From an uncultured Dehalococcoidia bacterium (GTDB taxonomy: Bacteria > Chloroflexota > Dehalococcoidia > Lucifugimonadales > Australimonadaceae), in assembly GCA_964560025.1 (NCBI GenBank), contig CAZLKC010000001.1:89010-153009 (forward strand): 64,000 bases of DNA, given 5' to 3'. Below, in pieces: positions 2,251 through 19,113 of this stretch. The stretch's first letter is position 1. Each line of letters begins with the position of its first letter. Below the pieces are notes generated by a model, which saw nothing but the letters and a program-made list of their open reading frames with translations, was not told the origin of the DNA and ran no database searches. A program made the position numbers and the translations under genes.

Positions 2251-3120
2251 GTGCATCCCTTCCAGTACCTAGCGCCAACGTCGGTGGCGGAGGCCGTAGA
2301 CGCGCTGGCGCGTTACGGCGACCGCGCGCGAGCGCTCGCTGGCGGCACCGACGTGCTCGTGCAGACTCGAACCGGCCGCTTCAACCTCGACGCCGTCGTG
2401 GACGTGAAGCGCGTGCCCGAGGTGACGGCGCTGACGCTCGGCGAGGACAGCCTGAGCATCGGCGCGGCGGTTCCCTGCTACCGCATCTACGAGGACGCGG
2501 AGATAGCGGCGCTGTACCCGGGCATCATCGACGCGGCGTCGCTGATAGGCGGCATCCAGATACAGTCGCGCGCCAGCCTCGGCGGCAACCTATGCAACGC
2601 CTCACCCAGCGCGGACGGCATCTGCCCGCTCATCGTGCACTACGGGCAGGCGCACAGCGCGGGGCCGAACGGGCGGCGCTCCACGCCGGTCGAGGAGTTC
2701 TGCCTCGCGCCGGGGCAAACGGTGCTCGAACCGGGCGAATTCCTCGTCAGCATCGAACTGCCGCGTCCGGCGGCGGGATTCGGCGCGGCCTACCAGCGCT
2801 TCATCCCGCGCAACGAGATGGACATCGCCGTCGTGGGCGTCGGCAGTTCGCTCACGCTGAACGCGGCGGGCGACCGGATCGAATCGGCGCGCGTGGCGCT
2901 GGCCGCCGTCGGCCCCACGCCCATCCTCGCGCTCGAGGCGGGCGAGTCGCTCGTCGGCAAGCAGCCGGGCCTCGACGCCTTCCGCGAGGCGGGCGAACTG
3001 GCGGCGAACGCGGCGCGCCCCATCAGCGACATGCGCGGCGACGTCGCATTCCGCAAGGAACTGGTGCGCGTGCTCACGCGGCGCACCCTCACTACCGCAT
3101 TGGAGCGTGCCCAACTATGA
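2251..3120 (+). CDS. Molybdenum hydroxylase set 1, FAD-binding medium subunit (CoxM/XdhB-like)
   Basis: N-terminus MHPFQYLAPTSVAEAV..LAGGTDVLVQ and C-terminal DMRGDVAFRKELVRVL are typical of the FAD_binding_5/CO_deh_flav_C family. AGGAGG lies 8 nt upstream of the GTG. The stop overlaps the next start (ATGA). Confidence 0.9.
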   Translation: MHPFQYLAPTSVAEAVDALARYGDRARALAGGTDVLVQTRTGRFNLDAVVDVKRVPEVTALTLGEDSLSIGAAVPCYRIYEDAEIAALYPGIIDAASLIGGIQIQSRASLGGNLCNASPSADGICPLIVHYGQAHSAGPNGRRSTPVEEFCLAPGQTVLEPGEFLVSIELPRPAAGFGAAYQRFIPRNEMDIAVVGVGSSLTLNAAGDRIESARVALAAVGPTPILALEAGESLVGKQPGLDAFREAGELAANAARPISDMRGDVAFRKELVRVLTRRTLTTALERAQL

Positions 3121-3599
3121 CCACGGCGCCGGCCTCCCAGAAGATCATCCTGAACACGACCGTCAACGGACAGGAGCACCAGTTGCTCGTCGCGCCCTAT
3201 CACAGCCTGTTGGAGGCGCTGCGCGAGGCGGCGGGCCTAACGGGCGTGAAGGAGGGGTGCAACGACGGCAACTGCGGCGCGTGCACGGTGTCGCTCGACG
3301 GGCGCATCGTCGACTCGTGCCTCGTCCTCGCCGCGGAGGCGGAGGGCAAGCAGGTGCAGACGGTGGAAGGAATCGCGCCGGACGGCCAGACGCTTCACCC
3401 GCTGCAACAGGCGTTCTTGGAGGAGGCGGCGCTCCAGTGCGGCATCTGCACGCCGGGTTTCCTGGTGGCGGCCAAGGCGCTGCTCGACCGCGAGCCGGAC
3501 GCCGACGAAGACCGCATCCGCCTGTGGCTGGCGGGCAACCTATGCCGCTGCACGGGCTACGACAAGATCATCCGCGCCGTCCAAAAGGCGCAGGGCTAG
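3117..3599 (+). CDS. Molybdenum hydroxylase set 1, [2Fe-2S] small subunit (CoxS-like)
   Basis: Internal start MTTAPASQKIILNTTVNG within track ORF 2592..3599; the upstream 175 codons overlap the M1 gene and are Arg/Gly-rich filler. Cys motifs CNDGNCGACTV, QCGICTPGF and NLCRCTGY are present. Confidence 0.9.
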   Translation: MTTAPASQKIILNTTVNGQEHQLLVAPYHSLLEALREAAGLTGVKEGCNDGNCGACTVSLDGRIVDSCLVLAAEAEGKQVQTVEGIAPDGQTLHPLQQAFLEEAALQCGICTPGFLVAAKALLDREPDADEDRIRLWLAGNLCRCTGYDKIIRAVQKAQG

Positions 3600-3637
3600 A
3601 CGCCGCCCATCACCTTCACCCCAGGAGCAGACGACCT

Positions 3638-5929
3638 ATGACCACCATCGAGCAGCCCAAAGAGTACAAGGTCATCGGCACGCGGCCCATCAGGCACGAC
3701 GGGCTGGACAAGGTCATCGGCAAGGCGCAGTACGGCGCCGACCTGAAGCTCCCCGGCATGATCTGGGGCGCCCTGGCGCGCAGCCCCTACGCCCACGCGC
3801 GCATCAAGCGCATCGACACCTCCAAGGCGGAGCAGGCGCCGGGCGTGATGGCCGTCATCACCGGCGCAGACATGCCCGTGGCCGAGGCCATCGAGATTGA
3901 GACGGGCGAAGATGTCACCAACCTCGCCCACGCCAGCGACAAACTCATGGCGCGCGACAAGGTGGTCTACAAGGGGCACCCGGTGGCCGCCGTCGCCGCC
4001 GCCGACCAGAACGCCGCCGTCGAAGCGGCGCGCCTCATCGAGGTGGAGTACGAGGTGCTGCAACCCGTGCTGACGGTGGACGAGGCCATGGCGCCCGGCG
4101 CGCCCCTGGTGCACGAGGACTACCCCGGCAAAGACCTGGGCGAGGAGACGCGCAACACCAACGTCGCCGACCACTTCCGCCACGAGACGGGCGACGTGGC
4201 GGCGGGGTTCGCGGAGGCGTCGGTGGTCGTGGAGCGCGAGTTCGAGTTGACGATGGTGCACCAGGGCTACATCGAGCCCCACAACGCCACCGCCATCTGG
4301 AAGTCGGACGGCAAGATCGAGATATGGACATCCACGCAAGGCGCGTTCGGCGTGCGCAACTCCGTCGCGCCCATCCTGCGCGTGCCGGACACGGACATCC
4401 GCGTAACGCCGCTGGAGATCGGCGGCGGGTTCGGCGGCAAGATCCCCATCTACCTCGAACCCATCTGCGCGATGCTCTCCAAGAAGGCGGGGCGTCCCGT
4501 CAAGATCGTGATGGACCGCAAGTCGGTGTTCGAGGCGACCGGCCCGACGCCCGGCGGGCGTATCCGCGTGAAGATGGGCGCAAACGACAAGGGCGACATC
4601 ACCGCCGCCGAGGTTGACCTCTACTACGAGGCGGGCGCCTACCCCGGCTCGCCCGTCGGCGCGGGCGCGATGTGCGCCCTTGCCTGCTACCGCGTCACCA
4701 ACGCGCGCGTCGACGGCTACGACGTGCTCGTCAACAAGCCTAAGACCGCCGCCTACCGCGCCCCCGGCGCGACCCAAGCCGCCTACGCCGTCGAGTCGGT
4801 GGTGGACGAGATATGCCAGGCGCTCGGCATCGACCCGCTCGACTTCCGCCTGCACAACGCGACGCGCGAAGGCGACCGCCGCGCCGACGGCCCCGTCTAT
4901 CCGCGCATCGGCAACCTCGAGCAACTCCAAGCGCTCAAGGACTCACCCCACTACCGCACGCCCCTCGAGCGCGAGGGCGCGGACGGCAAGCTGCGCGGGC
5001 GCGGCGTCGCCAACGGCTTCTGGTTCAACGGCGGCATGCAGTCCTGCGTAACCATCAACGTCAACAGCGACGGCGAGGTCGGCCTCGTCGAAGGCTCCGT
5101 CGACATCGGCGGCACCCGCGCCTCCATCGCCATGCAAGCCGCCGAGGTGCTCGGCCTCAAGGCGGAGGAGGTGCACCCCGTCGTCGTGGACACCGACAGC
5201 GTCGGCTACACCGATATGACCGGCGGCAGCCGCACCACGAACGCCACCGGCTACGCCGCGTACCTCGCCGCGCAGAACGTCATCGCCGGAATGAAGGAGC
5301 GCGCCGCCATCCTCTGGGAGAGCAACGCGGACGACGTGGAGTTCGAGGACGGCGTCTTTTCCAGCAAGCACGACTCGGAGCTCAAGATCACCTTCAAGGA
5401 ACTGGCCGCCAAGCTCACCGAGACCGGCGGGCCTCTCGCCGCCAGCGGCTCCATCCGCCAGCGCGGCAGCGGCGGCGGTTTCGGCGCCCACCTCGTGGAT
5501 GTGGAGATTGACCCCGAAACGGGCAAGGTGGACGTGATCCGCTACACCGCCGCGCAGGACGTGGGCAAGGCCATCCATCCCTCCTACGTGGAAGGGCAGA
5601 TACAGGGCGGCGCCGCGCAGGGCATCGGCTGGGCGCTCAACGAGGAGTACTTCTGGAGCGACCAGGGCGTGATGGAGAACTCCACCTTCCTCGACTACCG
5701 CATGCCGACGGCGCTCGACCTGCCGATGATCGACACGATTGTCGTCGAGGTGCCGAACCCCACCCACCCCTTCGGCGTGCGCGGCGTCGGCGAGACGCCC
5801 ATCGTCGCCCCCGTCGGCGCGGTCGCCAACGCGATCCACGACGCGGTGGGCGTGCGCCTCACCCAAGCGCCGATGAAGCCGCAGCGCGTCCTCGCCGCCA
5901 TCAAGGAGAAGAACGGTAACGGCGCGTAA
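3638..5929 (+). CDS. Molybdenum hydroxylase set 1, molybdopterin-binding large subunit (763 aa)
   Basis: Start MTTIEQPKEYKVIGTRPIRHDG within track ORF 3107..5929. Contains EIGGGFGGK, GVRGVGETPIV and other Ald_Xan_dh_C/C2-type motifs. I did not see the AYxCSFR motif of genuine form I CO dehydrogenases. Confidence 0.9.
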   Translation: MTTIEQPKEYKVIGTRPIRHDGLDKVIGKAQYGADLKLPGMIWGALARSPYAHARIKRIDTSKAEQAPGVMAVITGADMPVAEAIEIETGEDVTNLAHASDKLMARDKVVYKGHPVAAVAAADQNAAVEAARLIEVEYEVLQPVLTVDEAMAPGAPLVHEDYPGKDLGEETRNTNVADHFRHETGDVAAGFAEASVVVEREFELTMVHQGYIEPHNATAIWKSDGKIEIWTSTQGAFGVRNSVAPILRVPDTDIRVTPLEIGGGFGGKIPIYLEPICAMLSKKAGRPVKIVMDRKSVFEATGPTPGGRIRVKMGANDKGDITAAEVDLYYEAGAYPGSPVGAGAMCALACYRVTNARVDGYDVLVNKPKTAAYRAPGATQAAYAVESVVDEICQALGIDPLDFRLHNATREGDRRADGPVYPRIGNLEQLQALKDSPHYRTPLEREGADGKLRGRGVANGFWFNGGMQSCVTINVNSDGEVGLVEGSVDIGGTRASIAMQAAEVLGLKAEEVHPVVVDTDSVGYTDMTGGSRTTNATGYAAYLAAQNVIAGMKERAAILWESNADDVEFEDGVFSSKHDSELKITFKELAAKLTETGGPLAASGSIRQRGSGGGFGAHLVDVEIDPETGKVDVIRYTAAQDVGKAIHPSYVEGQIQGGAAQGIGWALNEEYFWSDQGVMENSTFLDYRMPTALDLPMIDTIVVEVPNPTHPFGVRGVGETPIVAPVGAVANAIHDAVGVRLTQAPMKPQRVLAAIKEKNGNGA

Positions 5930-5933: not shown

Positions 5934-6197
5934 ATGCCGACCCTCTTCATTCCCATCCATTTGCGCAAGTTCACCGGCGGCGCGGAGCGCGTGGAGGTCG
6001 AGGGCGTGACGCTCCGCCGCGCGCTCGCTCAATTGACCGAACTCTACCCGGCTTTGGTGGCCGAAATCGTCCAGGGCGACCGCATCCGCCCTGGCCTCGC
6101 CGCAGTGGTGGACGGCGAACAGACGGTGGAGGGGCTGCGCGCGCCCCTCAAGCCCGCCTCCGAGGTCCACTTTCTGCGTCCCATCTCCGGGGGCTGA
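5934..6197 (+). CDS. MoaD/ThiS-family ubiquitin-like sulfur-carrier protein (C-terminal Gly-Gly)
   Basis: 87 aa ending ...EVHFLRPISGG-stop, the MoaD/ThiS pattern (PxSGG). It starts 5 nt after the L1 stop codon. Confidence 0.65.
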   Translation: MPTLFIPIHLRKFTGGAERVEVEGVTLRRALAQLTELYPALVAEIVQGDRIRPGLAAVVDGEQTVEGLRAPLKPASEVHFLRPISGG

Positions 6198-6207: not shown

Positions 6208-7368
6208 ATGAGACTCGCCGCCCGCATGTCGCGCTTGGGAACGGAGACGGCGTTCGAGGCGCTTGCGCGCGCCAGGGCGCTCGAGGCGCAGGGCCGCAGC
6301 ATCATTCACCTCGGCATCGGCGAGCCCGACTTCGACACGCCGGAGCACGTCCGCGACGCGGCCAAGCAGGCGCTCGACCAGGGCCACACGCACTACACGC
6401 CGTCGCCCGGCGTTATGGAGGTGCGCGAGGCCATTGCGCGCCATCAGACGCTGCGCCAGGGCTACGAAGTCTCGCCCGGCAGCGTCATCGTAACCCCCGG
6501 CGGTAAGCCCGTTATGTTCTTCACCATCCTCGCCCTCGCCGAACCGGGCGACGAGGTCATCTATCCCAACCCCGGCTTCCCCATCTACGAATCGATGATC
6601 CGCTTCGCCGGGGCGGCGCCTGTGGCGTGGCCGCTGCGCGAAGAGAACGATTTCGCCGCCGACGTGGACGAACTGCGCTCGCTGATCTCGCCGCGCACCA
6701 AACTCATCATCGTCAACTCGCCCAACAACCCTTGCGGCAGCGTGATTCCTCCCGACGGCCTGCGCCGCATCGCCGAGATAGCGAACGAGGCGGACGCGGT
6801 CGTGCTGAGCGACGAGATCTACAAAGACTTCTACTTCGAGGGCGAGCACGTCTCCATCACCGGCTTCCCTGGGATGCGCGAGCGCAGCGTCATCCTGGAC
6901 GGCCTCTCCAAGTCCTACGCAATGACGGGCTGGCGTCTCGGCTACGGCGTCTTCCCCGATCCGCTGGTGGAGCCGGTGTCGCGCCTGATGACCAACAGCG
7001 TCTCCTGCACGGCGGCGTTCACGCAGATGGCCGCCATCACCGCGCTCGAGGCGCCGCAAGACGGCGTGCGGGTGATGGTGGAGGAGTTCGCGGAGCGCCG
7101 CGACATCATCGTCGACGGCCTCAACGCGCTGCCCGGCGTGCGCTGCCTCACGCCCAAGGGCGCGTTCTACGCCTTCCCCAACGTCGAGGGCACGGGCTTA
7201 TCGAGCCAGGAGTTCGAGCGCACGATGCTGAACGACGCGGGCGTCTCGCTGCTCTCCGGCACGGCGTTCGGCGAACTGGGCCAGGGCTACGTCCGCATCT
7301 CCTTCGCCAACTCCGCCCCCAATCTCCGCGAAGCGCTAGCGCGTATGGAGCGAGTGTTGGCGGGGTAG
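6208..7368 (+). CDS. Class I/II pyridoxal-phosphate aminotransferase (aspartate aminotransferase-like)
   Basis: GIGEPDFDTP, NSPNNPCG and the PLP-lysine context LSKSYAMTGWRLGY. Confidence 0.9.
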   Translation: MRLAARMSRLGTETAFEALARARALEAQGRSIIHLGIGEPDFDTPEHVRDAAKQALDQGHTHYTPSPGVMEVREAIARHQTLRQGYEVSPGSVIVTPGGKPVMFFTILALAEPGDEVIYPNPGFPIYESMIRFAGAAPVAWPLREENDFAADVDELRSLISPRTKLIIVNSPNNPCGSVIPPDGLRRIAEIANEADAVVLSDEIYKDFYFEGEHVSITGFPGMRERSVILDGLSKSYAMTGWRLGYGVFPDPLVEPVSRLMTNSVSCTAAFTQMAAITALEAPQDGVRVMVEEFAERRDIIVDGLNALPGVRCLTPKGAFYAFPNVEGTGLSSQEFERTMLNDAGVSLLSGTAFGELGQGYVRISFANSAPNLREALARMERVLAG

Positions 7369-7456: not shown

Positions 7457-7816
7457 TTGGCTATGGGAACCTTCACGAGCGCGATACGGGTAACGGGCAT
7501 GGACGGCCTGCGCTCCGCCGACGTTGAGGCGGTGGTGGACACGGGCGCGGCCTGCACGACGCTGCCCGGCCGCCTGCTGGGCGAGTTGGGCGTCGCGCCT
7601 ATGGGCAATCGTCGTTTCCTGCTAGCCGACGGCCGCCGCACCGATATGGACTACGGCCGGGCTTGGGTGACCATTGATGGCGAGAGCGAGGTAACTATCG
7701 TAGTCTTCGGCGAGGACAAGGCACCTGCCTTGCTAGGCGCATACACGTTGGAGGGCCTGGCCCTGGCCGGCCCCGTGGCGCGACGCCTCGTCCCGACCAA
7801 CCTGATTATGTACTAG
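7457..7816 (+). CDS. Retropepsin-like (clan AA) single-domain aspartic protease
   Basis: 119 aa with the catalytic-type motif VVDTGAACTTLP and a later ...LLGAYTLEGL flap-like segment, as in bacterial gag-polyprotein-like aspartyl protease domains. Confidence 0.55.
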   Translation: MAMGTFTSAIRVTGMDGLRSADVEAVVDTGAACTTLPGRLLGELGVAPMGNRRFLLADGRRTDMDYGRAWVTIDGESEVTIVVFGEDKAPALLGAYTLEGLALAGPVARRLVPTNLIMY

Positions 7817-7846: not shown

Positions 7847-9322
7847 CTATTCCGTCCGCCGCGCTCGGGGCACGCCTCGGCGCACCTTGCCGTCGGGCGT
7901 GAAGAGGTCGGGCCATTGGGCGCGGAGGGCGTCGGCCTCGGCGCGCGTCTTGCGGGCGACGCCGGGGAACGACGTGAGGCGGTCGTAGGGGCGGCAGGCG
8001 TCGATGACCATGCGGTTGTTGTAGTAGCGCCCCGCTTCGCCTCCGTAAGACATCGGGTCGAGCGACGTGCTCCACATCTTGCGCAGTACGTCGACATCCT
8101 CCGTAACCTCCGTGCGCGTGCAGAGCGCCCACAGCACCTCGTTCGTGTCGGTGGGGTCGATGTCGTCGTCCACGACGATGACGAAGCGATTGGCGTAGGC
8201 GCCCGCGTGGACGGAGGTCGCCGCGTGGCCCACCTGCTTGGCGTGGCCGGGGTAGAGCTGAGTTACGGCGACGACGTTGAGCAGGCGTCCGCCGCCCGCC
8301 TCGTGCGACCACGCGCCGACGATGCCGGGGATGCCCGCGCGCTCCAACTCGTTCCATAGCAGTGCGGCGCGCATCGGGCTGCGGAAGTAGGTGTTGTCGT
8401 TCGGCGGCTTGCCGGGGAGACAGCCGAGCACGATGGGGTCGTTGCGCCACAGCACGGACGAGACGTTGATGACGGGCATCTCCCGCTCGCCGCCCGCGTA
8501 GTAGCCCGTCCACTCACCGAACGGCCCTTCCGCATGCGTCTCACCGATAGGAATCTCGCCCTCGATGACCAACTCCGACGTTGCGGGGACGGGCAAGCCC
8601 GTCTCCGGCGCCGCGATAACCTCGAGCGCCTCTCCGCGCACGCCGCCCGCGACGGCGTACTCGTCCACGCCGTAGTCCACCTCGATGCCGCCGAGCACCA
8701 GCAGCAGCGGGTCGTGGCCGAACGAGACGGCCACCGGGCACGCCTCGCCGCGCGCCCAATACTTGTCGCGGATGAGCCGTCCGTGCTTGCCCGGCGAGAT
8801 CATGATGCCCAGCGTCTTCTCGTCGTGCACTTGCACGCGATAGGTTCCCGCGTTCACCCAGCCGGTGTCCGGGTCCTTCGTCAGCACGATGCAGCCGGTG
8901 CCCAGGAAGCGCCCGCCGTCGTCCGTGTGCCACAACGGAGCGGGGAATTGGGTAACGTCGACGCGCTCCCCCACGGCGCGGTTCTCCAACACCGGGCCGT
9001 CCTCCACCAGCACGGGCGGGAGAGGCTCCATCCGTTGGATCCTGTCGCGCCACTCGCGGACGAACTCCTGCCGCGTCAGGTGCGTGGGCAGTCCGAGCGT
9101 GAGCAGCACGCGGGGCAGCGAGGTCAGCACATTGGCGGCGAGACGATGCCCGTCCGCGTGTCCCTTGATGCGCTCGAAGAGCAGCGCGGGGTTCTCCATC
9201 TCCCACTGGAACAGATCGACGATGCCGCCCAACTCGAGGTGCGGGTCGGCGCCCTCGACGCGGGTCAGTTCGCCCAGCGCCTCGACTCGCCCCAGCCACT
9301 CGCGCAGGTCTCCCACGGCCAT
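7847..9322 (-). CDS. ubiD: UbiD-family (prFMN-dependent) reversible decarboxylase
   Basis: 491 aa. The N-terminus DLREWLGRVEALGELTRVEGADPHLELGGI is the UbiD signature pattern. Length and the motifs GTYRVQVHD and GPFGEWTGYY fit the family. Confidence 0.9.
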   Translation of the reverse strand: MAVGDLREWLGRVEALGELTRVEGADPHLELGGIVDLFQWEMENPALLFERIKGHADGHRLAANVLTSLPRVLLTLGLPTHLTRQEFVREWRDRIQRMEPLPPVLVEDGPVLENRAVGERVDVTQFPAPLWHTDDGGRFLGTGCIVLTKDPDTGWVNAGTYRVQVHDEKTLGIMISPGKHGRLIRDKYWARGEACPVAVSFGHDPLLLVLGGIEVDYGVDEYAVAGGVRGEALEVIAAPETGLPVPATSELVIEGEIPIGETHAEGPFGEWTGYYAGGEREMPVINVSSVLWRNDPIVLGCLPGKPPNDNTYFRSPMRAALLWNELERAGIPGIVGAWSHEAGGGRLLNVVAVTQLYPGHAKQVGHAATSVHAGAYANRFVIVVDDDIDPTDTNEVLWALCTRTEVTEDVDVLRKMWSTSLDPMSYGGEAGRYYNNRMVIDACRPYDRLTSFPGVARKTRAEADALRAQWPDLFTPDGKVRRGVPRARRTE

Positions 9323-10788: not shown

Positions 10789-10911
10789 AGATAGAGCGCC
10801 TGCGCTAGGTAGGGGTTGGTGGTCAGGCTATCACGAACGGGCGCCCGCCTTGTAGCGGCGGGGCGCGCCGCCTAGCATAGCGCCCGCCAATCACTTGAAA
10901 GCGAATCGCCC

Positions 10912-11769: not shown

Positions 11770-12248
11770 GCAACGCAACGACCCGGATCCGTGTCGCCTT
11801 CGAGGTCAACGGACGCTCCGTCGAGGCGGACGTCGAGCCACGCGCGTTCCTCATCGACCTGCTGCGCGACGAGTTTGGGCTGACGAGCGTCAAGCGCTCC
11901 TGCGACGTGCAGGTGTGCGGCGCGTGCGCCGTGCTGCTGGACGGGCAGCCGGTGAGTTCCTGCACGCTTCCCGCGTTCGAGACGCGCGGGCGCAGTGTGC
12001 TGACGGCGGAGGGCCTGGCGGACGAACCGCTGGGCGAGGCACTCGCCCGCGCGTTCGCACAGCATGCCGCATTCCAATGCGGCTTCTGCACGCCCGGCCT
12101 GCTGCTCACCGCCAAGGCGCTGCTTGACGCCATCCCCACGCCTTCTCCCGACGAGGTTGCCGAACACCTGGAGGGCAACCTATGCCGCTGCACCGGCTAC
12201 AAGAAGATCGTCGAGGCCGTCTTGGCCGCTGCGGAGACCGCCCGATGA
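11766..12248 (+). CDS. Molybdenum hydroxylase set 2, [2Fe-2S] small subunit
   Basis: Start MSNATTRIRVAFEVNG inside track ORF 11616..12248. Motifs CDVQVCGACAV, QCGFCTPGL and NLCRCTGY. Confidence 0.9.
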   Translation: MSNATTRIRVAFEVNGRSVEADVEPRAFLIDLLRDEFGLTSVKRSCDVQVCGACAVLLDGQPVSSCTLPAFETRGRSVLTAEGLADEPLGEALARAFAQHAAFQCGFCTPGLLLTAKALLDAIPTPSPDEVAEHLEGNLCRCTGYKKIVEAVLAAAETAR

Positions 12249-14485
12249 GCGGGCCCTTCTTCCACACGGTGGGCCAGGCCGTCCCGCGCGTCGACGCGGA
12301 GGAGAAGACGTCGGGCCGCGCCAAGTACACGACCGACCTCGCGCTGCCCGGCATGGCCTACGCCAAGCTCGCCCTCAGCCCCTTGCCCCACGCGCGCATC
12401 GTGAGCATCGACGCCTCCCGCGCCCGCGTCCTCCCCGGCGTCTACGCCGTCCTCACCGCCGCCGACCTCACCGGGATGGAGACGCACTACGGCTCCGACC
12501 GCAAAGACCGCCCCATCGTAGCGATGGGCAAGGTGCGCTTCGAAGGCGAACCTATCGCGGCGGTGGCCGCCGCCGACCTGTCCACCGCCGAAGCCGCCGT
12601 CGAGCTCATCGAGGCGGAGTACGAGGAGTTGCCGCCGGTCATCGGCCTCGACGCGGCGCTCGCCGCGAGCGGAGAGCCTGTGCAGGAGAGCAACGTCTGC
12701 CACCGCTACGAGGTGGCGTGGGGCGACGCGGCGCGCGCTATGGCGAAGTGCGACCACGTGTTCGAGGACACATTCACCTTCCCGATGGTCTACCACTACG
12801 CGATGGAGCCGCACGCAGTCGTCGCCGACTACCAGCCCGACCGTCTCAGCGTCTGGTCGTCGGCGCAGCACCCTTTCCTGGTGCGCGCGGAGTTGGCGCG
12901 CGTCTTCCGCAAGCGCCTCGACCAGGTGCGCGTGGTGGTTCCCTACGTGGGCGGCGGCTACGGCAGCAAGTCCTACACCAAGATAGAGCCGCTCGCCGCC
13001 GCGCTCAGCCGCCTCGCCGCGCGCCCCGTGCGCCTTGCGCTGTCGGTGGAGGAGGCGATGAAGACCGTGCGCCGCCACGGCACGCGCGCCACGATCCGCA
13101 CCGGCGTGCGCGCCGACGGAACGTTCGTCGCGCGCGAGTGCCGCGTCGAACTCGACACCGGCGCCTACACCGACAACGGCGTGCGCGTAACCGAACGCGC
13201 CGCCGACCGCCTCCCCGGCCCCTACCGCTTCGAGCACCTGCGCAGCGAGGCCGTCGGCCTCTTCACCAACACCACGCCGGCCGGGTCGTTCCGCTCCATC
13301 GGCGGCCCGCAAGGCGCGTGGGCGTGCGAATCGCACACCGACAACATCGCCCACACGCTTGGCATAGACCCCCTCGAATTGCGCTTGAAGAACCTCGCTC
13401 GTCCGGGCGAGGAGTTGCTGCGCGGGTGCCGCCCCCTCGAGGCCGACCTGGCCGCGCCGCTTGCGGAGACGGCGCGCGAGTTCGGCTGGCACGACTACAA
13501 GCCCGCCCCGGCGACGCCCCACCTCAAGCGTGGCGTCGGCATGGCCTGCGCTGTCGCCAACGCGGGCGCGAGCCCCATCTCCGGCGCGTTCGTCCGCCTC
13601 CATGCGGACGGCAGCGCCACCGTGCACGTGGGCACGACGGAGATCGGCCAAGGCTCCCGCTCCGCCTTGGCGCAGATTGCCGCCGAGGAGCTGCGGTTGC
13701 CCCTGGGTAGCGTGCGCGTCATCGCGTCCGACACGGACGCAGTTCCCTACGACCGCTCCACCGGCGCGAGCCGTTCCACTACGCTCGCGGGCCTCGCCGT
13801 CCATGACGCGGCGGCGGACGCGCGGGCGCAGGCGGCGGACGCGGCGGCGCGCTACTTCGAGACGTTCGCGGAGCAGGTGACGCTCGCGGAGGGCGCCGCC
13901 TCGTTCGGGGGCGAGAGCGTCTCCTACGGCGCGCTCATCGCGCAGGTGTTCGGCGGCGCGGGAGGCGAGATCGTCGGGCGCAGCGCCATCACGCCCAACC
14001 ATCCCTCCGGCAAACTGGCCGAGGATCCGGTCTTCTGGGAGGTGAGCATGGGCTTCGCCGAGGTGGAGGTGGACACCGAGACGGGGCGCGTGCGCGTCCT
14101 GCGCTACACCTCCGTCGCCGACCCCGGCAAGGCGATCAACCCCGCGCAAGTGGAAGGCCAGGACGAGGGCGCGGCGATGCAAGGCGTCGGCCACACGCTA
14201 TTCGAGGAGATGCGCTACGAGGAAGGGCAGTTGATGAACCCGAACCTGATCGACTACCGCGTGCCTACGTTCGGGGACCTGCCGGACGAATTCCACACGG
14301 TGCTGTTGGAGCGCGGCGACGGGCCCGGCCCCTACGGCGCCAAGGGCGTCGGCGAGGGGGGAATCGTCGCCGTAGCCCCGGCGGTCGCCAACGCGCTCTT
14401 CAACGCAACCGGCGCGCGCGTCCGCGACCTGCCTCTCACCCCGGAGCGGGTGTGGCGCGCGCTGAGGGAGGCCGCCGATGCGTAG
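12245..14485 (+). CDS. Molybdenum hydroxylase set 2, molybdopterin-binding large subunit
   Basis: Start MSGPFFHTVGQAVPRVDAEEKTSGRAKYT inside track ORF 12182..14485 (ATGA overlap with S2). Motifs YVGGGYGSK and GAKGVGEGGIV. Confidence 0.9.
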   Translation: MSGPFFHTVGQAVPRVDAEEKTSGRAKYTTDLALPGMAYAKLALSPLPHARIVSIDASRARVLPGVYAVLTAADLTGMETHYGSDRKDRPIVAMGKVRFEGEPIAAVAAADLSTAEAAVELIEAEYEELPPVIGLDAALAASGEPVQESNVCHRYEVAWGDAARAMAKCDHVFEDTFTFPMVYHYAMEPHAVVADYQPDRLSVWSSAQHPFLVRAELARVFRKRLDQVRVVVPYVGGGYGSKSYTKIEPLAAALSRLAARPVRLALSVEEAMKTVRRHGTRATIRTGVRADGTFVARECRVELDTGAYTDNGVRVTERAADRLPGPYRFEHLRSEAVGLFTNTTPAGSFRSIGGPQGAWACESHTDNIAHTLGIDPLELRLKNLARPGEELLRGCRPLEADLAAPLAETAREFGWHDYKPAPATPHLKRGVGMACAVANAGASPISGAFVRLHADGSATVHVGTTEIGQGSRSALAQIAAEELRLPLGSVRVIASDTDAVPYDRSTGASRSTTLAGLAVHDAAADARAQAADAAARYFETFAEQVTLAEGAASFGGESVSYGALIAQVFGGAGGEIVGRSAITPNHPSGKLAEDPVFWEVSMGFAEVEVDTETGRVRVLRYTSVADPGKAINPAQVEGQDEGAAMQGVGHTLFEEMRYEEGQLMNPNLIDYRVPTFGDLPDEFHTVLLERGDGPGPYGAKGVGEGGIVAVAPAVANALFNATGARVRDLPLTPERVWRALREAADA

Positions 14486-15044
14486 GATCATCCTCGCTAT
14501 CACCGGCTCGTCCGCGCCTATCTACGGCGTCGCGGCGCTCGAGGCGTTGCGCGCGAGCGAGGGCGTGGAGACGCACCTGGTGGTGTCGGAGGGCGCGCGG
14601 GAGTCGCTCCGCCACGAGGCGCCGGAGTGGACGCCGGAGCGCCTGGCGGCGCTGGCGGACGTCTCCTACGCGCCGAACGACATGGCGGCGGCAATATCGA
14701 GCGGCTCCTTCAAGACGGACGGCATGCTGATCGCGCCCTGCTCGATGAAGACGCTGGCCGCCGTCGCCAACGGCTACTCCGGCGACCTCATCGCCCGCGC
14801 CGCCGACGTGTGCCTCAAGGAGCGCCGCCGCCTCGTGCTGCTGCCGCGCGAGACGCCCCTCAACCGCGCGCACCTGGTCAATATGCTTGCGGTCAACGAT
14901 ATGGGCGGGGTGCTGCTCCCCCCCGTGCCCGCCTTCTACGGACGCCCCGAATCCATCCGCGACCTGGTCGACCACGCCATCGGCAAGGCGCTCGACCTGC
15001 TCGGCGTTCCCCACGCGCTGTTCCGACGGTGGGGCGGGGGATAA
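14478..15044 (+). CDS. ubiX: UbiX flavin prenyltransferase (prFMN synthase)
   Basis: 188 aa. RIILAITGSSAPIYG, CSMKTLAAVANG and LVLLPRETPL are classic UbiX/Pad1 motifs. The start overlaps the 3' end of L2 by 8 nt. Confidence 0.9.
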   Translation: MRRIILAITGSSAPIYGVAALEALRASEGVETHLVVSEGARESLRHEAPEWTPERLAALADVSYAPNDMAAAISSGSFKTDGMLIAPCSMKTLAAVANGYSGDLIARAADVCLKERRRLVLLPRETPLNRAHLVNMLAVNDMGGVLLPPVPAFYGRPESIRDLVDHAIGKALDLLGVPHALFRRWGGG

Positions 15045-15049
15045 GCGCG

Positions 15050-15463
15050 ATGTCCCGCTCCGTCGGCGTCACGCTGCCTGAGCCGCTGCTCGCGGCGTTG
15101 GCCGCTCCCGCAGCCGCTGAGCGCGCCGCGGTAGCGCTGACCGTAGACGCGGCGGGGCGCCCCCACCCGGCGCTGCTGACCTACGACTCCGTGCGCCCGC
15201 AAGGCGACGGCGCGCTGCGCGTGGAATTCGCGGATGAGAGCGCATCCGCCGCCAACCTGCGCGCCAACGGGGTGCTCACGCTCGCCTTCGTGGACGAGGC
15301 GATGGCCTACTACGTCAAGTGCGGCGGCGCGGTGATTGACGGGGGCGCCGCGCGCATGGCGCGCTTCCTGCTGCGCGTGGATGAGGTGCTCGCCGACGCT
15401 CCGGCGGCGCACGAGGTTGGCGCTTCCATCCGAACAGGGATAACCTTTCACGGCGGCGCTTAG
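15050..15463 (+). CDS. Small protein, possibly a PNPOx-like split-barrel flavin-binding protein
   Basis: Start MSRSVGVTLPEP inside track ORF 14627..15463. The segment ALTVDAAGRPHPALLTYDSV resembles the 'T-vd-dG-P-h' pattern of the pyridoxamine-phosphate-oxidase-like family. The assignment is weak. Confidence 0.45.
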   Translation: MSRSVGVTLPEPLLAALAAPAAAERAAVALTVDAAGRPHPALLTYDSVRPQGDGALRVEFADESASAANLRANGVLTLAFVDEAMAYYVKCGGAVIDGGAARMARFLLRVDEVLADAPAAHEVGASIRTGITFHGGA

Positions 15464-15477
15464 CCCGCTCCCTGTCT

Positions 15478-16341
15478 ATGCGCAACTTCGAATACGCCCA
15501 ACCCGCCACCGCCAGCGAGGCAAGCCGCCTGCTTGCCGGCAGCGACGACGCCATGGCGCTCGGCGGCGGCACCGCCGCGGTGGTGCTGCTCCACCTAGGC
15601 CTGCTGCGCCCGGGCCTGGTCGTCGACCTGGGCGGCGCGGCGGAACTCCACGGCGTGGAGCGACGCAACGGGGGCATGCGCGTCGGCGCGCTGACCACCA
15701 TCCGCGCGCTGGAGACCTCCACCGCGATTGGCGCTGCCTATCCGATCCTGGCCGAGGCCGCGTCGCAGGTGGGCAGCGTGCGCGTCCGCAACGCCGCCAC
15801 CGTCGGCGGCGCTGTCGCCTACGGCGAGCCGCAGACCGACGTTCCTAGCGCCCTCATCGCCCTTGGCGCGCAGATCGAGGCGCAGCACGGCGATGAGCGG
15901 CGCTCGCTGCCTCTGGCCGACTTCTTCCACGGCCCCTACGAGACCGACCTGGCGCACGGCGAAATCGTGAGCGCCCTATCGCTTCCCGCGCCTCAAGCGC
16001 GCACGGGCGGCTGCCACGTCAAGTTCACCATCGGCTCGATGGAGCACAAGCCTGTGGCCAATGCCTCCGCCGTCGTAACGCTGGACGCGGACGGCGCGTG
16101 CCGCGAAGCGCGCGTCGTCGTCGGCGCCGTCGGGCCCACGCCGCTAGTAGCGAAGCGGGCTGCTCACGCACTGCTGGGCGCGCCCATCGGCGAGGCCGCC
16201 GCGCAAGAGGCGGCGCGCATAGCAAGCGAGGACGCCGAGCCCATCGACGACCTGCGCGGCTCCGCGTGGTACAAGCGCCGCATCGTCCGCGTGCTCGTCG
16301 AGCGGGCGCTGCGCCGCGCAGCAGAGCGGGCGGCGGCATGA
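15478..16341 (+). CDS. Molybdenum hydroxylase set 3, FAD-binding medium subunit
   Basis: MRNFEYAQPATASEA..LGGGTAAVVLL and the C-terminal DDLRGSAWYKRRIVRVLVER. The stop overlaps the next ATG. Confidence 0.9.
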   Translation: MRNFEYAQPATASEASRLLAGSDDAMALGGGTAAVVLLHLGLLRPGLVVDLGGAAELHGVERRNGGMRVGALTTIRALETSTAIGAAYPILAEAASQVGSVRVRNAATVGGAVAYGEPQTDVPSALIALGAQIEAQHGDERRSLPLADFFHGPYETDLAHGEIVSALSLPAPQARTGGCHVKFTIGSMEHKPVANASAVVTLDADGACREARVVVGAVGPTPLVAKRAAHALLGAPIGEAAAQEAARIASEDAEPIDDLRGSAWYKRRIVRVLVERALRRAAERAAA

Positions 16342-18632
16342 GGGTCGTCGGCAGTTCGCCCCCCACGCTCGAGGCGGAGGACAAGGTCGCCGGGCGCACG
16401 CGCTACCTGCCCGACGAGGTAATCCCGGGGATGGCGCACGCCAAGGTGCTGCGCAGCCCCTACGCCCACGCGCTCCTCGTCTCCATCGACGCGTCGCAAG
16501 CGCGCGCCCTGCCCGGCGTGGTCTGCGTGCTGACGCGCGACGAGGTGCTGGCCGACCCGCGCGTCGAGAACCTCTACGGCTACGTGTTCAGGGACGCGCC
16601 GCTGGTCGCCATCGATCGCGTGCGCTACCAGGGCGACATCGTCGCGGTGGTCGTCGCCGAGGACGCGCACACGGCGGAAGAGGCGCTCGAACTCATCGAC
16701 GTTGAATACGAGGAGCTGCCGCGCCTGCTGGACGCAGAGGACGCGATGCGTCCGGACGCGCCCCTCATCCACGAGCATATGTATCCCATCGCGTCGGAAC
16801 TGCGCCCCATCGAGGGGACGAACGTCTGCCACCGCTCGACTTTGGAGACGGGCGACGTGGAGCAGGGGTTCGCGGAGGCGGACGCGGTGTTCGAGGACGT
16901 GTACGAGGCGCCGCCCGTCCAGCACTGCGCGCTGGAACTGCACGCCGTGGTAGCCGACGTGCGCGACGACACGACGACCGTCTGGACGAACTGCCAGGCG
17001 CCGTTCCCCTTGAAGGCGGAGTTGGAGCGCATCTTCAAGCGCCCGGCGCGCGTCATCGTCTCCTATGTCGGCGGCGGGTTCGGCAGCAAGAGCCGCGACC
17101 GCATCGAGTCGGTCGTCGCAGCGGCGTCCAACTTAGCCAAGCGCCCGGTGCGGCTCGTGCTCACGCAGGAGGAGACCTTCCTCGCCGGGTACATCCGCCC
17201 CGCGTTCAAGTGCTGGATCAAGACGGGCGTAACGCGCGAGGGAATCATCACCGCGCGCTCCTACCGCTTCATCACCGACGTAGGCGCCTACGCCATCACC
17301 GGCGCGCGCAGCGCCAACAACACCGTCAAGGTGGCCACCGGCCCCTACCGCATCCCCAACGCCTTCGTCGAGTGCTTCGCCGTCTACACCAACAAGCCTC
17401 CCTCCGCGCCTTATCGCGGCCTGCCCACCACCCAGCACACGATGGCCTACGAAACGCAGTTCGACCGCATCGCCGACGAACTCGGCGTCGACCGCGTCGA
17501 GATACGCAAGCGCAACCTGCTGAAGGACGGCGACGTCCACGTAACGGGCGACCTCATCCGCTCCTCGCACGTGGCCGAGTGCCTAGACGGCGCGGTGGAG
17601 GCGCTGAGCGGCCCCGCGCCCGCCAACGACGAGCGGACGCTGCGAGGGCGCGGCTTCGGCTGCACCATCAAGTACACGCTCACGCCGCCTCAGCCCTCTG
17701 TCGAATCGGAAGCCGCCGTCGAGTTGGGCGCGGACGGGCGCTTCGAGGTGCGCGTCGCCACCGTCAACATCGGCCAAGGCTCCGACACTACGATGGCGCA
17801 GATAGCGGCGGAGGCGCTGGGCGTCGGCTTGGAGCGCGTGCGCGTCGTCCACAGCGACACCGCCCTCGTGCCGCCCGACAGCAGCACCACCGCCAGCCGC
17901 TCCACCTACCATATGGGCAACGCCGTGCTGGACGCCGCCTCGCGGCTGCGCGCCGAGGTGCTGGAGGTCGCGGCGGGGCTCTTGGAGGAGGAGCCGGACG
18001 CGCTCCGCCTCGACGGCGGCGGGGTGCGCCTCGCGTCCGCCCCCGAGCGGCGCGTCGCGCTCGACGAACTGGTCGCCGCCAACGGCGCGCCCCTTGTCCA
18101 ATACGGCCAATGCGAGGTCGGCGGCGAGTATGTGGACGAGCAGGGCAAGCGCTACCCCGTCGCCTCCACCTTCTGGACGTTCGCGGCGGCGGGCGCCGAG
18201 GTTGCGGTGTCGCGGGAGACGGGGCAGATCACGCTGTCGAGGGTCTCCTGCGCCGTGAACGTCGGCAAGGCGGTCAACCCCGTCTCCGTCCACAAGCAGA
18301 TCGAGGGCGGCCTGGGCATGGAGCTCGGCCCCACGCTGTTCGAGCGCCTCGTGTGGGACGGCGACGGCCAACTGCTCACCTCCTCGCTGCTCGACTACCC
18401 GCTGCCCACGATGTCCACGATGCCGCGCTACGAGACGGCGCTAGTGGAGCCCGGCTTCCCCGGCGGCCCCTACGGCGCCAAGGGGATGGGCGAGGTCGGC
18501 TCCGTCGTCCTGCCCGCCGCCGTGCTCAACGCCGTCTACGACGCCACCGGCGTCCGTTTCCACAGCGTCCCGCTCCACCCCGAGGCCGTCCTGCGCGCGC
18601 TGGAAGAGGCGGGAGAGGCGGCCGATGGCTAG
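16338..18632 (+). CDS. Molybdenum hydroxylase set 3, molybdopterin-binding large subunit
   Basis: Start MRVVGSSPPTLEAEDKVAGRTRYLPD inside track ORF 16098..18632. Motifs YVGGGFGSK and GAKGMGEVGSV. Confidence 0.9.
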   Translation: MRVVGSSPPTLEAEDKVAGRTRYLPDEVIPGMAHAKVLRSPYAHALLVSIDASQARALPGVVCVLTRDEVLADPRVENLYGYVFRDAPLVAIDRVRYQGDIVAVVVAEDAHTAEEALELIDVEYEELPRLLDAEDAMRPDAPLIHEHMYPIASELRPIEGTNVCHRSTLETGDVEQGFAEADAVFEDVYEAPPVQHCALELHAVVADVRDDTTTVWTNCQAPFPLKAELERIFKRPARVIVSYVGGGFGSKSRDRIESVVAAASNLAKRPVRLVLTQEETFLAGYIRPAFKCWIKTGVTREGIITARSYRFITDVGAYAITGARSANNTVKVATGPYRIPNAFVECFAVYTNKPPSAPYRGLPTTQHTMAYETQFDRIADELGVDRVEIRKRNLLKDGDVHVTGDLIRSSHVAECLDGAVEALSGPAPANDERTLRGRGFGCTIKYTLTPPQPSVESEAAVELGADGRFEVRVATVNIGQGSDTTMAQIAAEALGVGLERVRVVHSDTALVPPDSSTTASRSTYHMGNAVLDAASRLRAEVLEVAAGLLEEEPDALRLDGGGVRLASAPERRVALDELVAANGAPLVQYGQCEVGGEYVDEQGKRYPVASTFWTFAAAGAEVAVSRETGQITLSRVSCAVNVGKAVNPVSVHKQIEGGLGMELGPTLFERLVWDGDGQLLTSSLLDYPLPTMSTMPRYETALVEPGFPGGPYGAKGMGEVGSVVLPAAVLNAVYDATGVRFHSVPLHPEAVLRALEEAGEAADG

Positions 18633-19113
18633 CGCCCCCCTACGCGTCGAACTCGCCGTCAACGGCGCGGCGCACAGCGTTACCGCGCAGCCGCGCGAGA
18701 CGCTGCTCGACGTGCTGCGCGAGCGCCTTGGCCTCACCGGCGCCAAGAGCTACTGCCACTCGGGAGCGTGCGGCGCATGCACGGTGCTGCTGGACGGCGA
18801 AGCCGTATCCGCGTGCAGCACCCTTATCGGCCAGGTCCGCGGCCGGGCGGTTACGACCGTCGAGGGGCTATCCGAAGACGGCGGCCTGCATCCGATACAG
18901 CAGGCGTTCATCGACCACTGGGGCTTCCAGTGCGGCTACTGCACGCCGGGCATGCTTCTGCTCGCCAAGTCGCTGCTGGACGCGAACCCCACCCCGACGG
19001 ACGAGCAGATAGTGGAGCATATGAGCGGCAACATCTGCCGCTGCACCGGCTACGCAGGCATCCTCGAATCGGTGCGCGCCGCCGCCCAAACGCTAGCGAG
19101 CGAGCGCCGCTAG
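18625..19113 (+). CDS. Molybdenum hydroxylase set 3, [2Fe-2S] small subunit (encoded after the large subunit)
   Basis: 162 aa with CHSGACGACTV, QCGYCTPGM and NICRCTGY. The start overlaps L3 by 8 nt. Confidence 0.9.
   Translation: MASAPLRVELAVNGAAHSVTAQPRETLLDVLRERLGLTGAKSYCHSGACGACTVLLDGEAVSACSTLIGQVRGRAVTTVEGLSEDGGLHPIQQAFIDHWGFQCGYCTPGMLLLAKSLLDANPTPTDEQIVEHMSGNICRCTGYAGILESVRAAAQTLASERR

Follow-up and report, generated by a model that had tools for sequence, protein, structure and literature searches.

The 64,000-nucleotide stretch of DNA analysed here, referred to as the window, comes from an uncultured, soil-type Dehalococcoidia bacterium of the phylum Chloroflexota (GenBank assembly GCA_964560025.1, contig CAZLKC010000001.1, positions 89,010 to 153,009 of the forward strand). 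We focused our attention on an island of genes at positions 2251 to 19113 of the window, which encodes three molybdenum hydroxylases of the xanthine oxidoreductase (XOR) family together with a UbiD-family decarboxylase dependent on prenylated flavin mononucleotide (prFMN), the flavin prenyltransferase UbiX, a small PhdC-like protein, CoxG and an oxidoreductase of the luciferase-like monooxygenase (LLM) family. Because the G+C content is approximately 70% throughout the window, mechanical lists of open reading frames (ORFs) are noisy; ORFs were filtered by third-position GC, and then checked against Pfam and NCBIfam. A preliminary description of the same DNA had placed the nine hydroxylase genes and their neighbours at or very near the positions reported below.

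Each hydroxylase is composed of a subunit binding flavin adenine dinucleotide (FAD; M), a [2Fe-2S] subunit (S) and a large subunit carrying the molybdenum cofactor (Moco; L), and all nine genes lie on the plus strand. Set 1 comprises M1 (2251-3120; 289 amino acids, aa), S1 (3117-3599) and L1 (approximately 3638-5929). The start of L1 was set at the first ATG past the S1 stop; the mechanical ORF at 3107-5929 (940 aa) over-calls this gene, with S1 lying upstream of it in another frame. Set 2 is formed by M2 (10912-11769), S2 (11766-12248) and L2 (12245-14485), and set 3 by M3 (15478-16341), L3 (16338-18632; 764 aa) and S3 (18625-19113), the last gene of the plus-strand operon. All nine genes match, well above the Pfam gathering scores, the domain sets of the XOR family, namely FAD_binding_5 and CO_deh_flav_C in the M subunits, Fer2 and Fer2_2 in the S subunits, and Ald_Xan_dh_C, MoCoBD_1 and MoCoBD_2 in the L subunits. 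Moreover, S1, S2 and S3 contain exactly 8 Cys apiece, with the canonical spacing for two [2Fe-2S] clusters. The large subunits were aligned with five solved relatives rebuilt from HMMER output (HcrA, QorL, KdhL, M. smegmatis CoxL and PaoC), showing that L1, L2 and L3 all retain the GGGF/YG motif (GGGFG in L1), the Gln of the active site and the catalytic Glu at the C-terminus (VGE).

The same alignment confirms an earlier statement that none of the three carries the loop of form I CO dehydrogenases: at its position, L1 reads AYRAPG, L2 SFRSIG and L3 PYRGLP, as compared to AYACSFR in M. smegmatis CoxL. A form I CO dehydrogenase (loop AY[RA]CSFR) was rejected on the lack of the Cys-containing CSFR loop in L1-L3, and on scores of 249-336 bits against the NCBIfam model CO_dehy_Mo_lg, for which the cut-off is 991. 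Among solved structures, L1, L2 and L3 are all matched best by the alpha subunit of 4-hydroxybenzoyl-CoA reductase (4-HBCR; HcrA, PDB 1RM6), with 315-359 bits. In NCBIfam, L1-L3 score 451-522 bits with 4-HBCR alpha and XdhA, and 389-423 bits with glyceraldehyde dehydrogenase alpha, this being below threshold, as is their match to PaoC; overall, they lie far below every equivalog cut-off concerned (XdhA, HcrA, PucD, glyceraldehyde dehydrogenase, CoxL and PaoC). 4-HBCR itself (HcrABC) was rejected, as L1-L3 reach 461-522 bits with TIGR03194 against a cut-off of 994.55; the context also speaks against it, no CoA ligase having been found in the island by Pfam scans.

Identities between the sets amount to 33-39% for L, 30-32% for M and 47-49% for S, and on these figures the three hydroxylase paralogues are old. 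When compared to their orthologues in a related locus, L001 (related loci are designated here by our own numbers), every hydroxylase, UbiD, UbiX, LLM and CoxG gene shows a ratio of nonsynonymous to synonymous substitution rates (dN/dS) of 0.07-0.22; L1, for instance, is 93% identical to its orthologue, with a dN/dS of 0.10. Given these ratios and the intact motifs, the nine genes are judged to be working genes under purifying selection and not decaying duplicates, and pseudogenising duplication was rejected as an explanation. Thus, domains, residues and dN/dS all bear out the preliminary description, which had read the nine genes as three complete FAD/[2Fe-2S]/Moco hydroxylases and had doubted that the sets were recent pseudogenising copies.

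Sets 2 and 3, both of them complete cytoplasmic hydroxylases, form a single plus-strand string with ubiX (14478-15044) and a 137-aa ORF (15050-15463). From the coordinates, the M2/S2, S2/L2 and M3/L3 junctions are overlaps of 4 nucleotides (nt) each, and the L2/ubiX (14478-14485) and L3/S3 junctions overlaps of 8 nt, while ubiX is separated from the 137-aa ORF by 5 nt and the latter from M3 by 14 nt. A fusion of set 2 with ubiX, the 137-aa ORF and set 3 had been proposed; the 8-nt overlap and the string itself hold, and the junctions argue for translational coupling, not for a literal fusion. On the minus strand, and facing M2 across a divergent spacer of 123 bp (10789-10911), as had been described, lie the genes of the LLM oxidoreductase (9781-10788), which is the first of that operon, CoxG (9328-9777) and UbiD (7847-9322), with CoxG immediately upstream of UbiD. 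The LLM protein (Pfam Bac_luciferase, E 3e-50) has the F420 Rv2161c type as its best NCBIfam match (147.6 bits against a cut-off of 166.9), and its PDB matches mix FMN and F420 enzymes; it may be a flavin- or an F420-dependent oxidoreductase, the matches being too weak to tell which. CoxG is an SRPBCC protein (Pfam COXG, E 2e-19). A scan of the divergent spacer for promoter and terminator consensus sequences gave no match. Alignment with the orthologous spacers of loci L001 and L086 revealed a conserved CAGGCTATCACG, as well as CCTTGT followed, 17 nt on, by TAGCAT, which weakly suggests that the spacer is a candidate promoter or operator. An Rfam scan of the island returned neither a Moco riboswitch nor any other RNA element, and no regulator gene was found in the scanned parts of the island.

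We then examined the decarboxylase and its partners. UbiD matches Pfam UbiD_N, UbiD and UbiD_C, as well as NCBIfam TIGR00148 (288 bits against a cut-off of 244.85). Its residues R162, E265 and E270 do not vary across the clade alignment, the last of them, located in the motif EGPFGEW, being aligned with Glu269 of PhdA. The best PDB match is PhdA, 7PDA (E 1e-108, 367 bits, 41% identity), followed by HudA at 1e-57; the score with 6H6V, an HmfF structure, is 147 bits. Structure 7PDA is the phenazine-1-carboxylate decarboxylase of Mycolicibacterium fortuitum, an enzyme that acts on phenazine- and quinoxaline-carboxylates (PMC10850782). Since PhdA is 43-46% identical to many other members of the clade, dozens of which are as close to it as the window UbiD, it is best regarded as a sister rather than an orthologue of the island enzyme. 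UbiX (Pfam Flavoprotein) exceeds the cut-offs of NF004685 (243 bits against 188) and TIGR00421 (234 bits against 108.9).

The 137-aa ORF after ubiX had been described as PNPOx-like. The gene is there, and its product is now assigned as a PhdC-like split-barrel protein on sequence, profile, predicted fold and position. PhdC is the sole strong match in the PDB (phmmer, 9SRG and 9NK0, E 1e-5), a family profile of the ORF finds PhdC with E 7e-10, and the top nine Foldseek PDB matches of its AlphaFold model (pLDDT 86) are all PhdC (E 3e-7, TM 0.65). In M. fortuitum, phdC comes after phdB (ubiX) in one operon, and its product is a prFMN maturase (PMC13040415). The preliminary description had listed PhdC as a UbiD clade, which is not upheld: it is this maturase, homologous to the small ORF of the island. 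The PhdC-like gene starts 5 nt past ubiX, the same position that phdC takes after phdB. Taken together, a UbiD nearest to PhdA, a UbiX and a PhdC-like ORF following ubiX indicate that the island holds a PhdA/B/C-like trio.

Relatives of the window UbiD at 65-91% identity are almost all metagenomic, those with names being Chloroflexota or Dehalococcoidia metagenome-assembled genomes. The whole arrangement, including set 1, is found in L001 and L094, and L095 shows the same order from the aminotransferase gene through set 3, set 1 falling beyond the range fetched. In L086 (UbiD 84%), the string set 2-UbiX-PhdC-like-set 3 is divergent from LLM-CoxG-UbiD, and set 1 is absent. Loci L002 and L009 (UbiD 77-78%) contain set 2, an alpha/beta hydrolase, LLM, set 3, CoxG and UbiD, without UbiX, and in L087 (UbiD 79%) a hydrolase, LLM and set 3 are followed by CoxG and, further on, UbiD. 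Orthologues of L2 are 91% identical in L001, 77% in L086 and 67% in L002 and L009. In L001, L086, L002, L009 and L087, orthologues of L3 (63-90%) always occur in the order M-L-S and near CoxG and UbiD, and orthologues of LLM are 70-90% identical. In addition, CoxG adjoins UbiD in these five loci and in L012 and L094, and it follows UbiD in the Paraburkholderia locus L090. From these comparisons, LLM, CoxG and UbiD with set 3, and usually with set 2, make up the conserved core; in the window it takes the form of two divergent operons, LLM-CoxG-UbiD on one side and set 2-UbiX-PhdC-like-set 3 on the other. Set 1, on the other hand, is assigned to an accessory flank, because it is absent from L086, L002, L009 and L087; the same flank holds the MoaD-like, aminotransferase, SMP-30/gluconolactonase-type (SGL) and major facilitator superfamily (MFS) genes. 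Hence, the earlier view of three hydroxylases wired to the decarboxylase is an overstatement with regard to set 1.

Two irregularities were seen among the close relatives. In L095, UbiD (2784-3797) is called with only 337 aa and a gap of approximately 470 nt to CoxG, which could reflect a frameshift, an assembly error or real decay. Moreover, an extra 43-aa ORF lies between L3 and S3 in L001 (514-645) and L095 (13619-13750), where L3 has 779 aa as compared to 764 aa in the window; the window and L094 do not have this ORF.

To evaluate the association over a wider range, species-representative genomes were scanned, yielding 80 loci with a UbiD of the window clade (46-78% identity), or 89 loci once contigs were included. 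An XOR large subunit lies within approximately 10 kb of the UbiD gene in 25 of these 89 loci, which are not phylogenetically independent; the chance expectation, a rough estimate and not a measurement (10 L genes in a 4-Mb genome), is approximately 5%. A neighbour-joining tree of the large subunits separates L1, L2 and L3 into three lineages, each with UbiD-adjacent subunits from other phyla. Beyond its close relatives, L1 is nearest (45%) to the subunit of an alphaproteobacterial UbiD-M-S-L operon (L055). L2 groups with "lone" L genes beside UbiD in eight Binatia and Thermodesulfobacteriota loci (50-52%), while L3 joins Chloroflexota loci, a more distant neighbour being a Paraburkholderia caribensis locus arranged as hydrolase-M-L-S-MFS-XdhC-CoA ligase-thioesterase-UbiD-CoxG. 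The three lineages share one superclade with HcrA and a subunit resembling that of lumazine dehydrogenase (LuDH), apart from CoxL, QorL and KdhL, and they do not group with PaoC.

These data bear on one of the alternatives, namely that three independent hydroxylase sets, UbiD and LLM have come to be adjacent by chance in a phylum in which XOR paralogues are many. Three points would fit such a coincidence: conservation of the core does not extend to set 1, XOR genes are absent around many UbiD relatives at 65-77% identity, and synteny among the closest relatives could result from shared ancestry alone. However, L2 shares 8 nt with ubiX, and the prFMN genes lie enclosed by two hydroxylases. Moreover, the pairing recurs in Binatia, Thermodesulfobacteriota, Alphaproteobacteria and Betaproteobacteria in rearranged gene orders that shared ancestry cannot explain, and its frequency of 25 in 89 compares to the estimated 5%. 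We consider coincidence improbable. Because UbiD-XOR pairs recur across phyla in rearranged orders, the pairing is taken to represent functional coupling; gene overlap, synteny and the co-occurrence across phyla with relatives of each large subunit thus sustain the functional tie between the hydroxylases and the prFMN decarboxylase that had been claimed earlier.

Some of the loci recovered deserve a separate mention. On plasmid 2 of A. aromaticum EbN1 (L093), a third UbiD (WP_011255029; 11920-13434), 46% identical to the window UbiD, is located in the anaerobic phthalate region, behind an ABC transporter and with one of the region's two UbiX/UbiD pairs on either side; we know of no described role for it. 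A Streptomyces plasmid relative contains UbiD, UbiX and a hydrolase. No characterised orthologue was found among the Streptomyces, EbN1 and Paraburkholderia plasmid loci.

Overall, the island is a real, conserved and uncharacterised catabolic module whose every part belongs to a known family, and gene content, synteny and the lack of a characterised orthologue agree with the hydroxylation/decarboxylation island previously proposed. Our main reading, to which we assign a probability of roughly 0.6, is that molybdenum hydroxylases and a PhdA-like prFMN decarboxylase cooperate here in breaking down a (hetero)aromatic acid, most likely an N-heteroaromatic one. The molybdenum enzymes would insert hydroxyls derived from water into an electron-poor ring, likeliest an N-heteroaromatic ring and beside the nitrogen, once or twice in sequence; two successive hydroxylations are the simplest reading of sets 2 and 3. 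UbiD would take off a ring carboxylate without oxidation, acting either on the starting compound, like PhdA, or on an intermediate, as when lumazine is turned into xanthine. For this, prFMN would be supplied by UbiX and the PhdC-like protein, encoded between sets 2 and 3. LLM could then carry out a redox reaction of the activated ring with flavin or F420, and CoxG may bind a hydrophobic substrate or anchor the complex. Finally, an isochorismatase-like amidase, a class II aldolase-like decarboxylase, a meta-cleavage-type hydrolase and a deaminase encoded in the right flank may finish the breakdown. The order of these steps, what LLM and the flank genes do, and the assignment of the substrate to the N-heterocycles are our inferences; since no island enzyme has an equivalog-level match, the chemistry follows from family membership. 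N-heteroaromatic acids are favoured because of the relationship to PhdA and the chemistry of XOR enzymes. As the preliminary description had held, the substrate itself cannot be read from the sequence.

The XOR L/M/S family also includes aldehyde oxidoreductases, and the catalytic Glu is common to both activities. The three hydroxylases could then be (hetero)aromatic aldehyde oxidoreductases, acting for instance on lignin- or humic-derived aldehydes, with UbiD decarboxylating the resulting acids. The sub-threshold matches of L1-L3 to glyceraldehyde dehydrogenase alpha and PaoC would be in agreement with this, as would a glucose-methanol-choline (GMC) oxidoreductase and a second CoxG nearby in L087, and flank genes that resemble those of homocyclic aromatic catabolism. 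Nevertheless, the tree places L1-L3 with 4-HBCR alpha and the LuDH-like subunit and not with PaoC, the scores with 4-HBCR alpha and XdhA exceed those with the aldehyde enzymes, and two or three aldehyde oxidases per decarboxylase would be less economical than sequential ring hydroxylation. We regard the aldehyde route as unlikely. It is also conceivable that carboxylation comes first, UbiD adding a carboxyl group to an unsubstituted (hetero)arene without oxygen and the hydroxylases acting next, independently of O2. Indeed, the best NCBIfam match of UbiD is phenylphosphate carboxylase beta (300 bits, below cut-off), the core enzymes are all oxygen-independent in principle, with the oxygen of XOR enzymes coming from water, and UbiD enzymes are reversible (PMC8379154). 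Against this, Pfam scans revealed neither a phosphorylating or ATP-dependent partner nor a CoA ligase or additional carboxylase subunits, cupin and LigB dioxygenases, which depend on oxygen, occur in close relatives, and the nearest characterised enzyme, PhdA, is a decarboxylase in vivo (PMC10850782). Carboxylation as the opening step is accordingly given a low probability, lower than that of the aldehyde route.

Several observations weigh against the breakdown of a (hetero)aromatic acid by coupled hydroxylation and decarboxylation. No characterised orthologue was found, and none of the enzymes of the island is above any curated equivalog cut-off in NCBIfam. XOR genes are lacking in the vicinity of about half of the close UbiD relatives (65-77%), the otherwise syntenic L086 does not have set 1, nor do L002, L009 and L087, and the relatives L002 and L087 carry cupin and LigB dioxygenases. 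The large-subunit tree is a neighbour-joining tree without support values, and the conserved XOR residues do not separate hydroxylase from aldehyde oxidoreductase activity. The window UbiD, 41% identical to PhdA, is equally distant (44-46%) from uncharacterised UbiDs of the EbN1 phthalate region and of a Paraburkholderia locus with a CoA ligase, so that the acid may also be homocyclic or linked to CoA. Flank genes similar to PhtC and to HsaD/BphD resemble homocyclic-aromatic enzymes, both below cut-off, and together with the 46% identical UbiD in the EbN1 phthalate region and the cupin and LigB genes of relatives they leave room for a homocyclic acid. Finally, the PhdC-like protein has Ser47 (beside Asp46 or Ala46) where PhdC has Glu47; this position (E45 in the numbering of another group) is Glu in PhdC and in relatives of 160-166 aa. 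Its window clade has 136-137 aa as compared to approximately 163 in PhdC, and some 25 C-terminal aa are absent, among them the segment bearing Glu136 and ExW; one Glu (E122) is invariant in the clade, with no established equivalence to Glu136. At 0.38 (compared to L001), its dN/dS is the highest in the island. Owing to Ser47 and the missing C-terminal segment, the maturase role is uncertain, and the 137-aa protein may be described as a short, divergent PhdC homologue, a candidate prFMN maturase for which a chaperone role is possible as well.

Regarding the genes around the island core, the left flank begins with an MFS transporter (15-1178, plus strand; Pfam MFS_1), whose N-terminus is probably cut by the window edge; the syntenic gene of L001 encodes 421 aa. 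Its NCBIfam matches, to symporters of lactate, galactonate and aromatic acids, are weak and all far under the cut-offs, and such subfamily matches of MFS transporters are too weak to indicate a substrate. It is followed by an SGL-type beta-propeller hydrolase (1281-2150, plus; Pfam SGL, E 9e-37) and, past set 1, by a ThiS/MoaD-like small protein (5934-6197, plus; Pfam ThiS, with a weak MoaD-family NCBIfam match below cut-off) and a class I/II pyridoxal phosphate-dependent aminotransferase (6208-7368, plus; Aminotran_1_2, E 6e-70, below every NCBIfam equivalog cut-off). The MFS and SGL genes are syntenic in L001, the ThiS/MoaD-like gene in L001 and L094, and the aminotransferase gene in L001, L094 and L095. 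Between the aminotransferase and UbiD genes lies a retropepsin-like ORF (7457-7816, plus), with weak Asp_protease_2 matches below the gathering score. In L094, two retropepsin-like copies (2289-2645, minus, and 14955-15311, plus) lie on either side of the segment that runs from UbiD to the isochorismatase gene; such copies may mark a mobile or recombining unit.

In the right flank, and convergent with S3, lies the gene of an isochorismatase-family hydrolase, a candidate amidase (19110-19898, minus; Isochorismatase, E 3e-25) with weak similarity to biuret amidohydrolase and RutB. Next to it is a class II aldolase/adducin-family protein (19924-20745, minus; Aldolase_II, E 3e-34), whose second-best NCBIfam match is the 3,4-dihydroxyphthalate decarboxylase PhtC (97 bits against a cut-off of 200), and which is possibly an aromatic-acid decarboxylase; Aldolase_II pairs also occur near UbiD in L087 and L088. 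Further on are a cytidine deaminase (CDA)-fold deaminase (21711-22157, plus; Pfam dCMP_cyt_deam_1) and a hydrolase resembling meta-cleavage-product hydrolases (22212-23066, plus; Pfam Abhydrolase_1), HsaD/BphD-like with 142-144 bits, below cut-off. The isochorismatase and aldolase genes are syntenic in L094 and L095, where the deaminase and meta-cleavage hydrolase genes keep their positions too, and the genes between differ. These four genes may belong to the pathway; since L094 and L095 are close relatives, their synteny counts for little as evidence. Situated between the aldolase-family and deaminase genes, a PIN-domain gene (20742-21197, minus) and a small upstream ORF (21185-21538, minus) presumably form a toxin-antitoxin pair; at the same spot, L094 has a 967-aa Eco57I-like gene and L095 two unknown genes, so that it looks like a variable insertion spot within a gene order that is conserved elsewhere.

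Elsewhere in the window, a 642-aa gene (28007-29935) with two PBP_like_2 (PstS-type) domains contains a 300-nt direct repeat (28161-28460 and 29055-29354; 96% identity, spacing 894 nt), which is read from the sequence as a recent internal tandem duplication of the phosphate-binding domain. A gene for SelA, selenocysteine synthase, is located at 43329-44705, and because of its presence the organism probably uses selenocysteine; a tRNA-Arg call by ARAGORN inside selA (43698-43782), which Rfam does not confirm, is probably a false positive. Genes for an acetamidase/formamidase-family protein (24749-25678), a second LLM (46399-47496) and a DUF1989 protein (48769-49410) are candidate nitrogen- or flavin-related catabolic genes, for which no link to the island was shown.

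Soil and the subsurface are rich in Chloroflexota and Binatia, which are poorly cultured and have carbon sources that are largely guessed. If the proposed function is true, the island and its relatives mark a recurring partnership of molybdenum hydroxylation and prFMN decarboxylation for stable ring acids, the lumazine pathway being the only free-acid case characterised to date. We put forward, tentatively and with less confidence than the function itself, a broader version: a PhdA-like UbiD clade and two XOR lineages, of the L2 and L3 types and sometimes also of the L1 type, would be old partners across Chloroflexota, Binatia, Thermodesulfobacteriota and Proteobacteria, defining an undescribed, largely oxygen-independent pathway for a class of (hetero)aromatic carboxylates outside the range of all characterised systems. 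Candidate substrates would be quinoxaline-, phenazine- or pteridine-like acids, as well as benzene polycarboxylates from humic matter or black carbon, and the short PhdC-like protein would then be a distinct prFMN-handling variant. All parts come from known families, and the practical value is moderate. UbiD, UbiX and the PhdC-like protein make a ready-made co-expression set, the activation of UbiD being a known practical bottleneck, and a natural short PhdC variant without the proposed catalytic Glu bears on the mechanism of prFMN maturation.

Several known systems can be compared with the island, whose arrangement was not described in the literature searched on UbiD with molybdenum hydroxylases, CoxG, pyridine-dicarboxylates, or phenazine degradation with molybdopterin. 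As to HcrABC of Thauera aromatica, L1-L3 group with HcrA in the tree and have it as their best structure match. However, the beta subunit of 4-HBCR (HcrB) carries a [4Fe-4S] insertion, for which the island M subunits (285-289 aa) are too short, and the island has no CoA-ester genes. In Cupriavidus basilensis HMF14, the furoyl-CoA dehydrogenase HmfABC reportedly works together with HmfFG (UbiD/UbiX), and thus an XOR-family three-subunit enzyme and UbiD/UbiX likewise serve one catabolic pathway. A CoA ligase and a hydratase are required for the hmf route; the scanned parts of the window yielded neither AMP-binding nor crotonase genes, as would be expected for a furoyl-CoA synthetase and a hydratase. 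The furan-dicarboxylate system was rejected on these missing CoA genes and on the UbiD scores (147 bits to 6H6V against 367 to PhdA), and the earlier suggestions of a furan- or pyridine-dicarboxylate substrate consequently find no specific support. Regarding pyridine carboxylates, Mycobacterium sp. INA1 is said to use isonicotinate and 2-hydroxyisonicotinate dehydrogenases, and Bacillus niacini nicotinate and 6-hydroxynicotinate dehydrogenases. Two XOR enzymes thereby hydroxylate one ring in turn, as proposed here for sets 2 and 3; we know of no prFMN decarboxylase in these pathways.

The PhdA/B/C system shares with the island the best UbiD structure match, the catalytic Arg and Glu, UbiX and a PhdC-like ORF after ubiX, all encoded together. 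In contrast to phdABC, the island trio is not one operon, as UbiD is divergent and grouped with LLM and CoxG, and the PhdC homologue is about 25 aa shorter with Ser for Glu47. As far as our literature search showed, the phd operon of M. fortuitum has not been reported with molybdenum hydroxylases.

The closest published precedent, which had been overlooked when HmfABC/FG and others were named earlier, is the lumazine/pterin cluster I of Cupriavidus sp. LA-1, published in 2025, an inducible catabolic cluster composed of LuDH, DHLI, XCDC, UbiX and a pterin deaminase (PMC12391406). LuDH is a three-subunit XOR-family lumazine dehydrogenase that hydroxylates C7 and then C6 with oxygen from water, and DHLI is an Amidohydro_2 isomerase with a GTP-binding helper, responsible for the ring contraction to xanthine-8-carboxylate. 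XCDC is a UbiD that, with UbiX, decarboxylates this acid to xanthine, and the pterin deaminase feeds the pathway (PMC12391406). It is the only pathway found in our literature search that joins XOR and UbiD on a free heterocyclic acid. That the island might be its orthologue was suggested by the deaminase and amidase neighbours, in particular the CDA-fold deaminase at 21711-22157, by the common plan, in which an XOR dehydrogenase and UbiD/UbiX have a deaminase close by (PMC12391406), and by a locus of Binatia with CobW, Amidohydro_1 and Amidohydro_2.

As Rhizobiales carry the lumazine cluster (PMC12391406), the S. meliloti pSymB locus L092 was taken as a proxy for the LA-1 cluster, whose published architecture it matches exactly: two amidohydrolases, UbiD, UbiX, a nucleobase permease, a GTP-binding protein, XOR L/S/M, GntR and an amidohydrolase. 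Between the proxy and the window, the UbiD proteins share 30% identity, and the proxy large subunit shares 36% with each of L1-L3, being no closer to them than they are to one another. By tblastn, the DHLI-like Amidohydro_2 pair, the GTP-binding protein and the amidohydrolase-type deaminase of L092 have no homologue in the 64-kb window. On these low identities and lacking partners, orthology was rejected, and we consider it very improbable.

The Binatia locus (L050; similarly L056, L059 and L060) encodes a CobW-type GTPase, XOR L-S-M (M 330 aa), Amidohydro_1, an ABC ATPase and UbiD (49% to that of the window), and then MTHFR, a lone L2-like subunit (51%) and Amidohydro_2. Its design is lumazine-cluster-like; only the CobW-type GTP-binding protein (41-43%) is common to such loci and the S. 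meliloti proxy, and they may represent another uncharacterised XOR-UbiD pathway.

The island and lumazine cluster I both combine water-dependent XOR hydroxylation with UbiD/UbiX action on an N-heterocyclic acid, in the case of the island as proposed here, within one cluster. In contrast to LuDH, one enzyme acting twice, the island has two or three distinct hydroxylases; moreover, it adds LLM, CoxG and the PhdC-like protein, and is without the DHLI pair, the GTP-binding helper and the amidohydrolase-type deaminase. Altogether, the Cupriavidus lumazine cluster is the best published precedent, one that shares its design with the island without being its orthologue.

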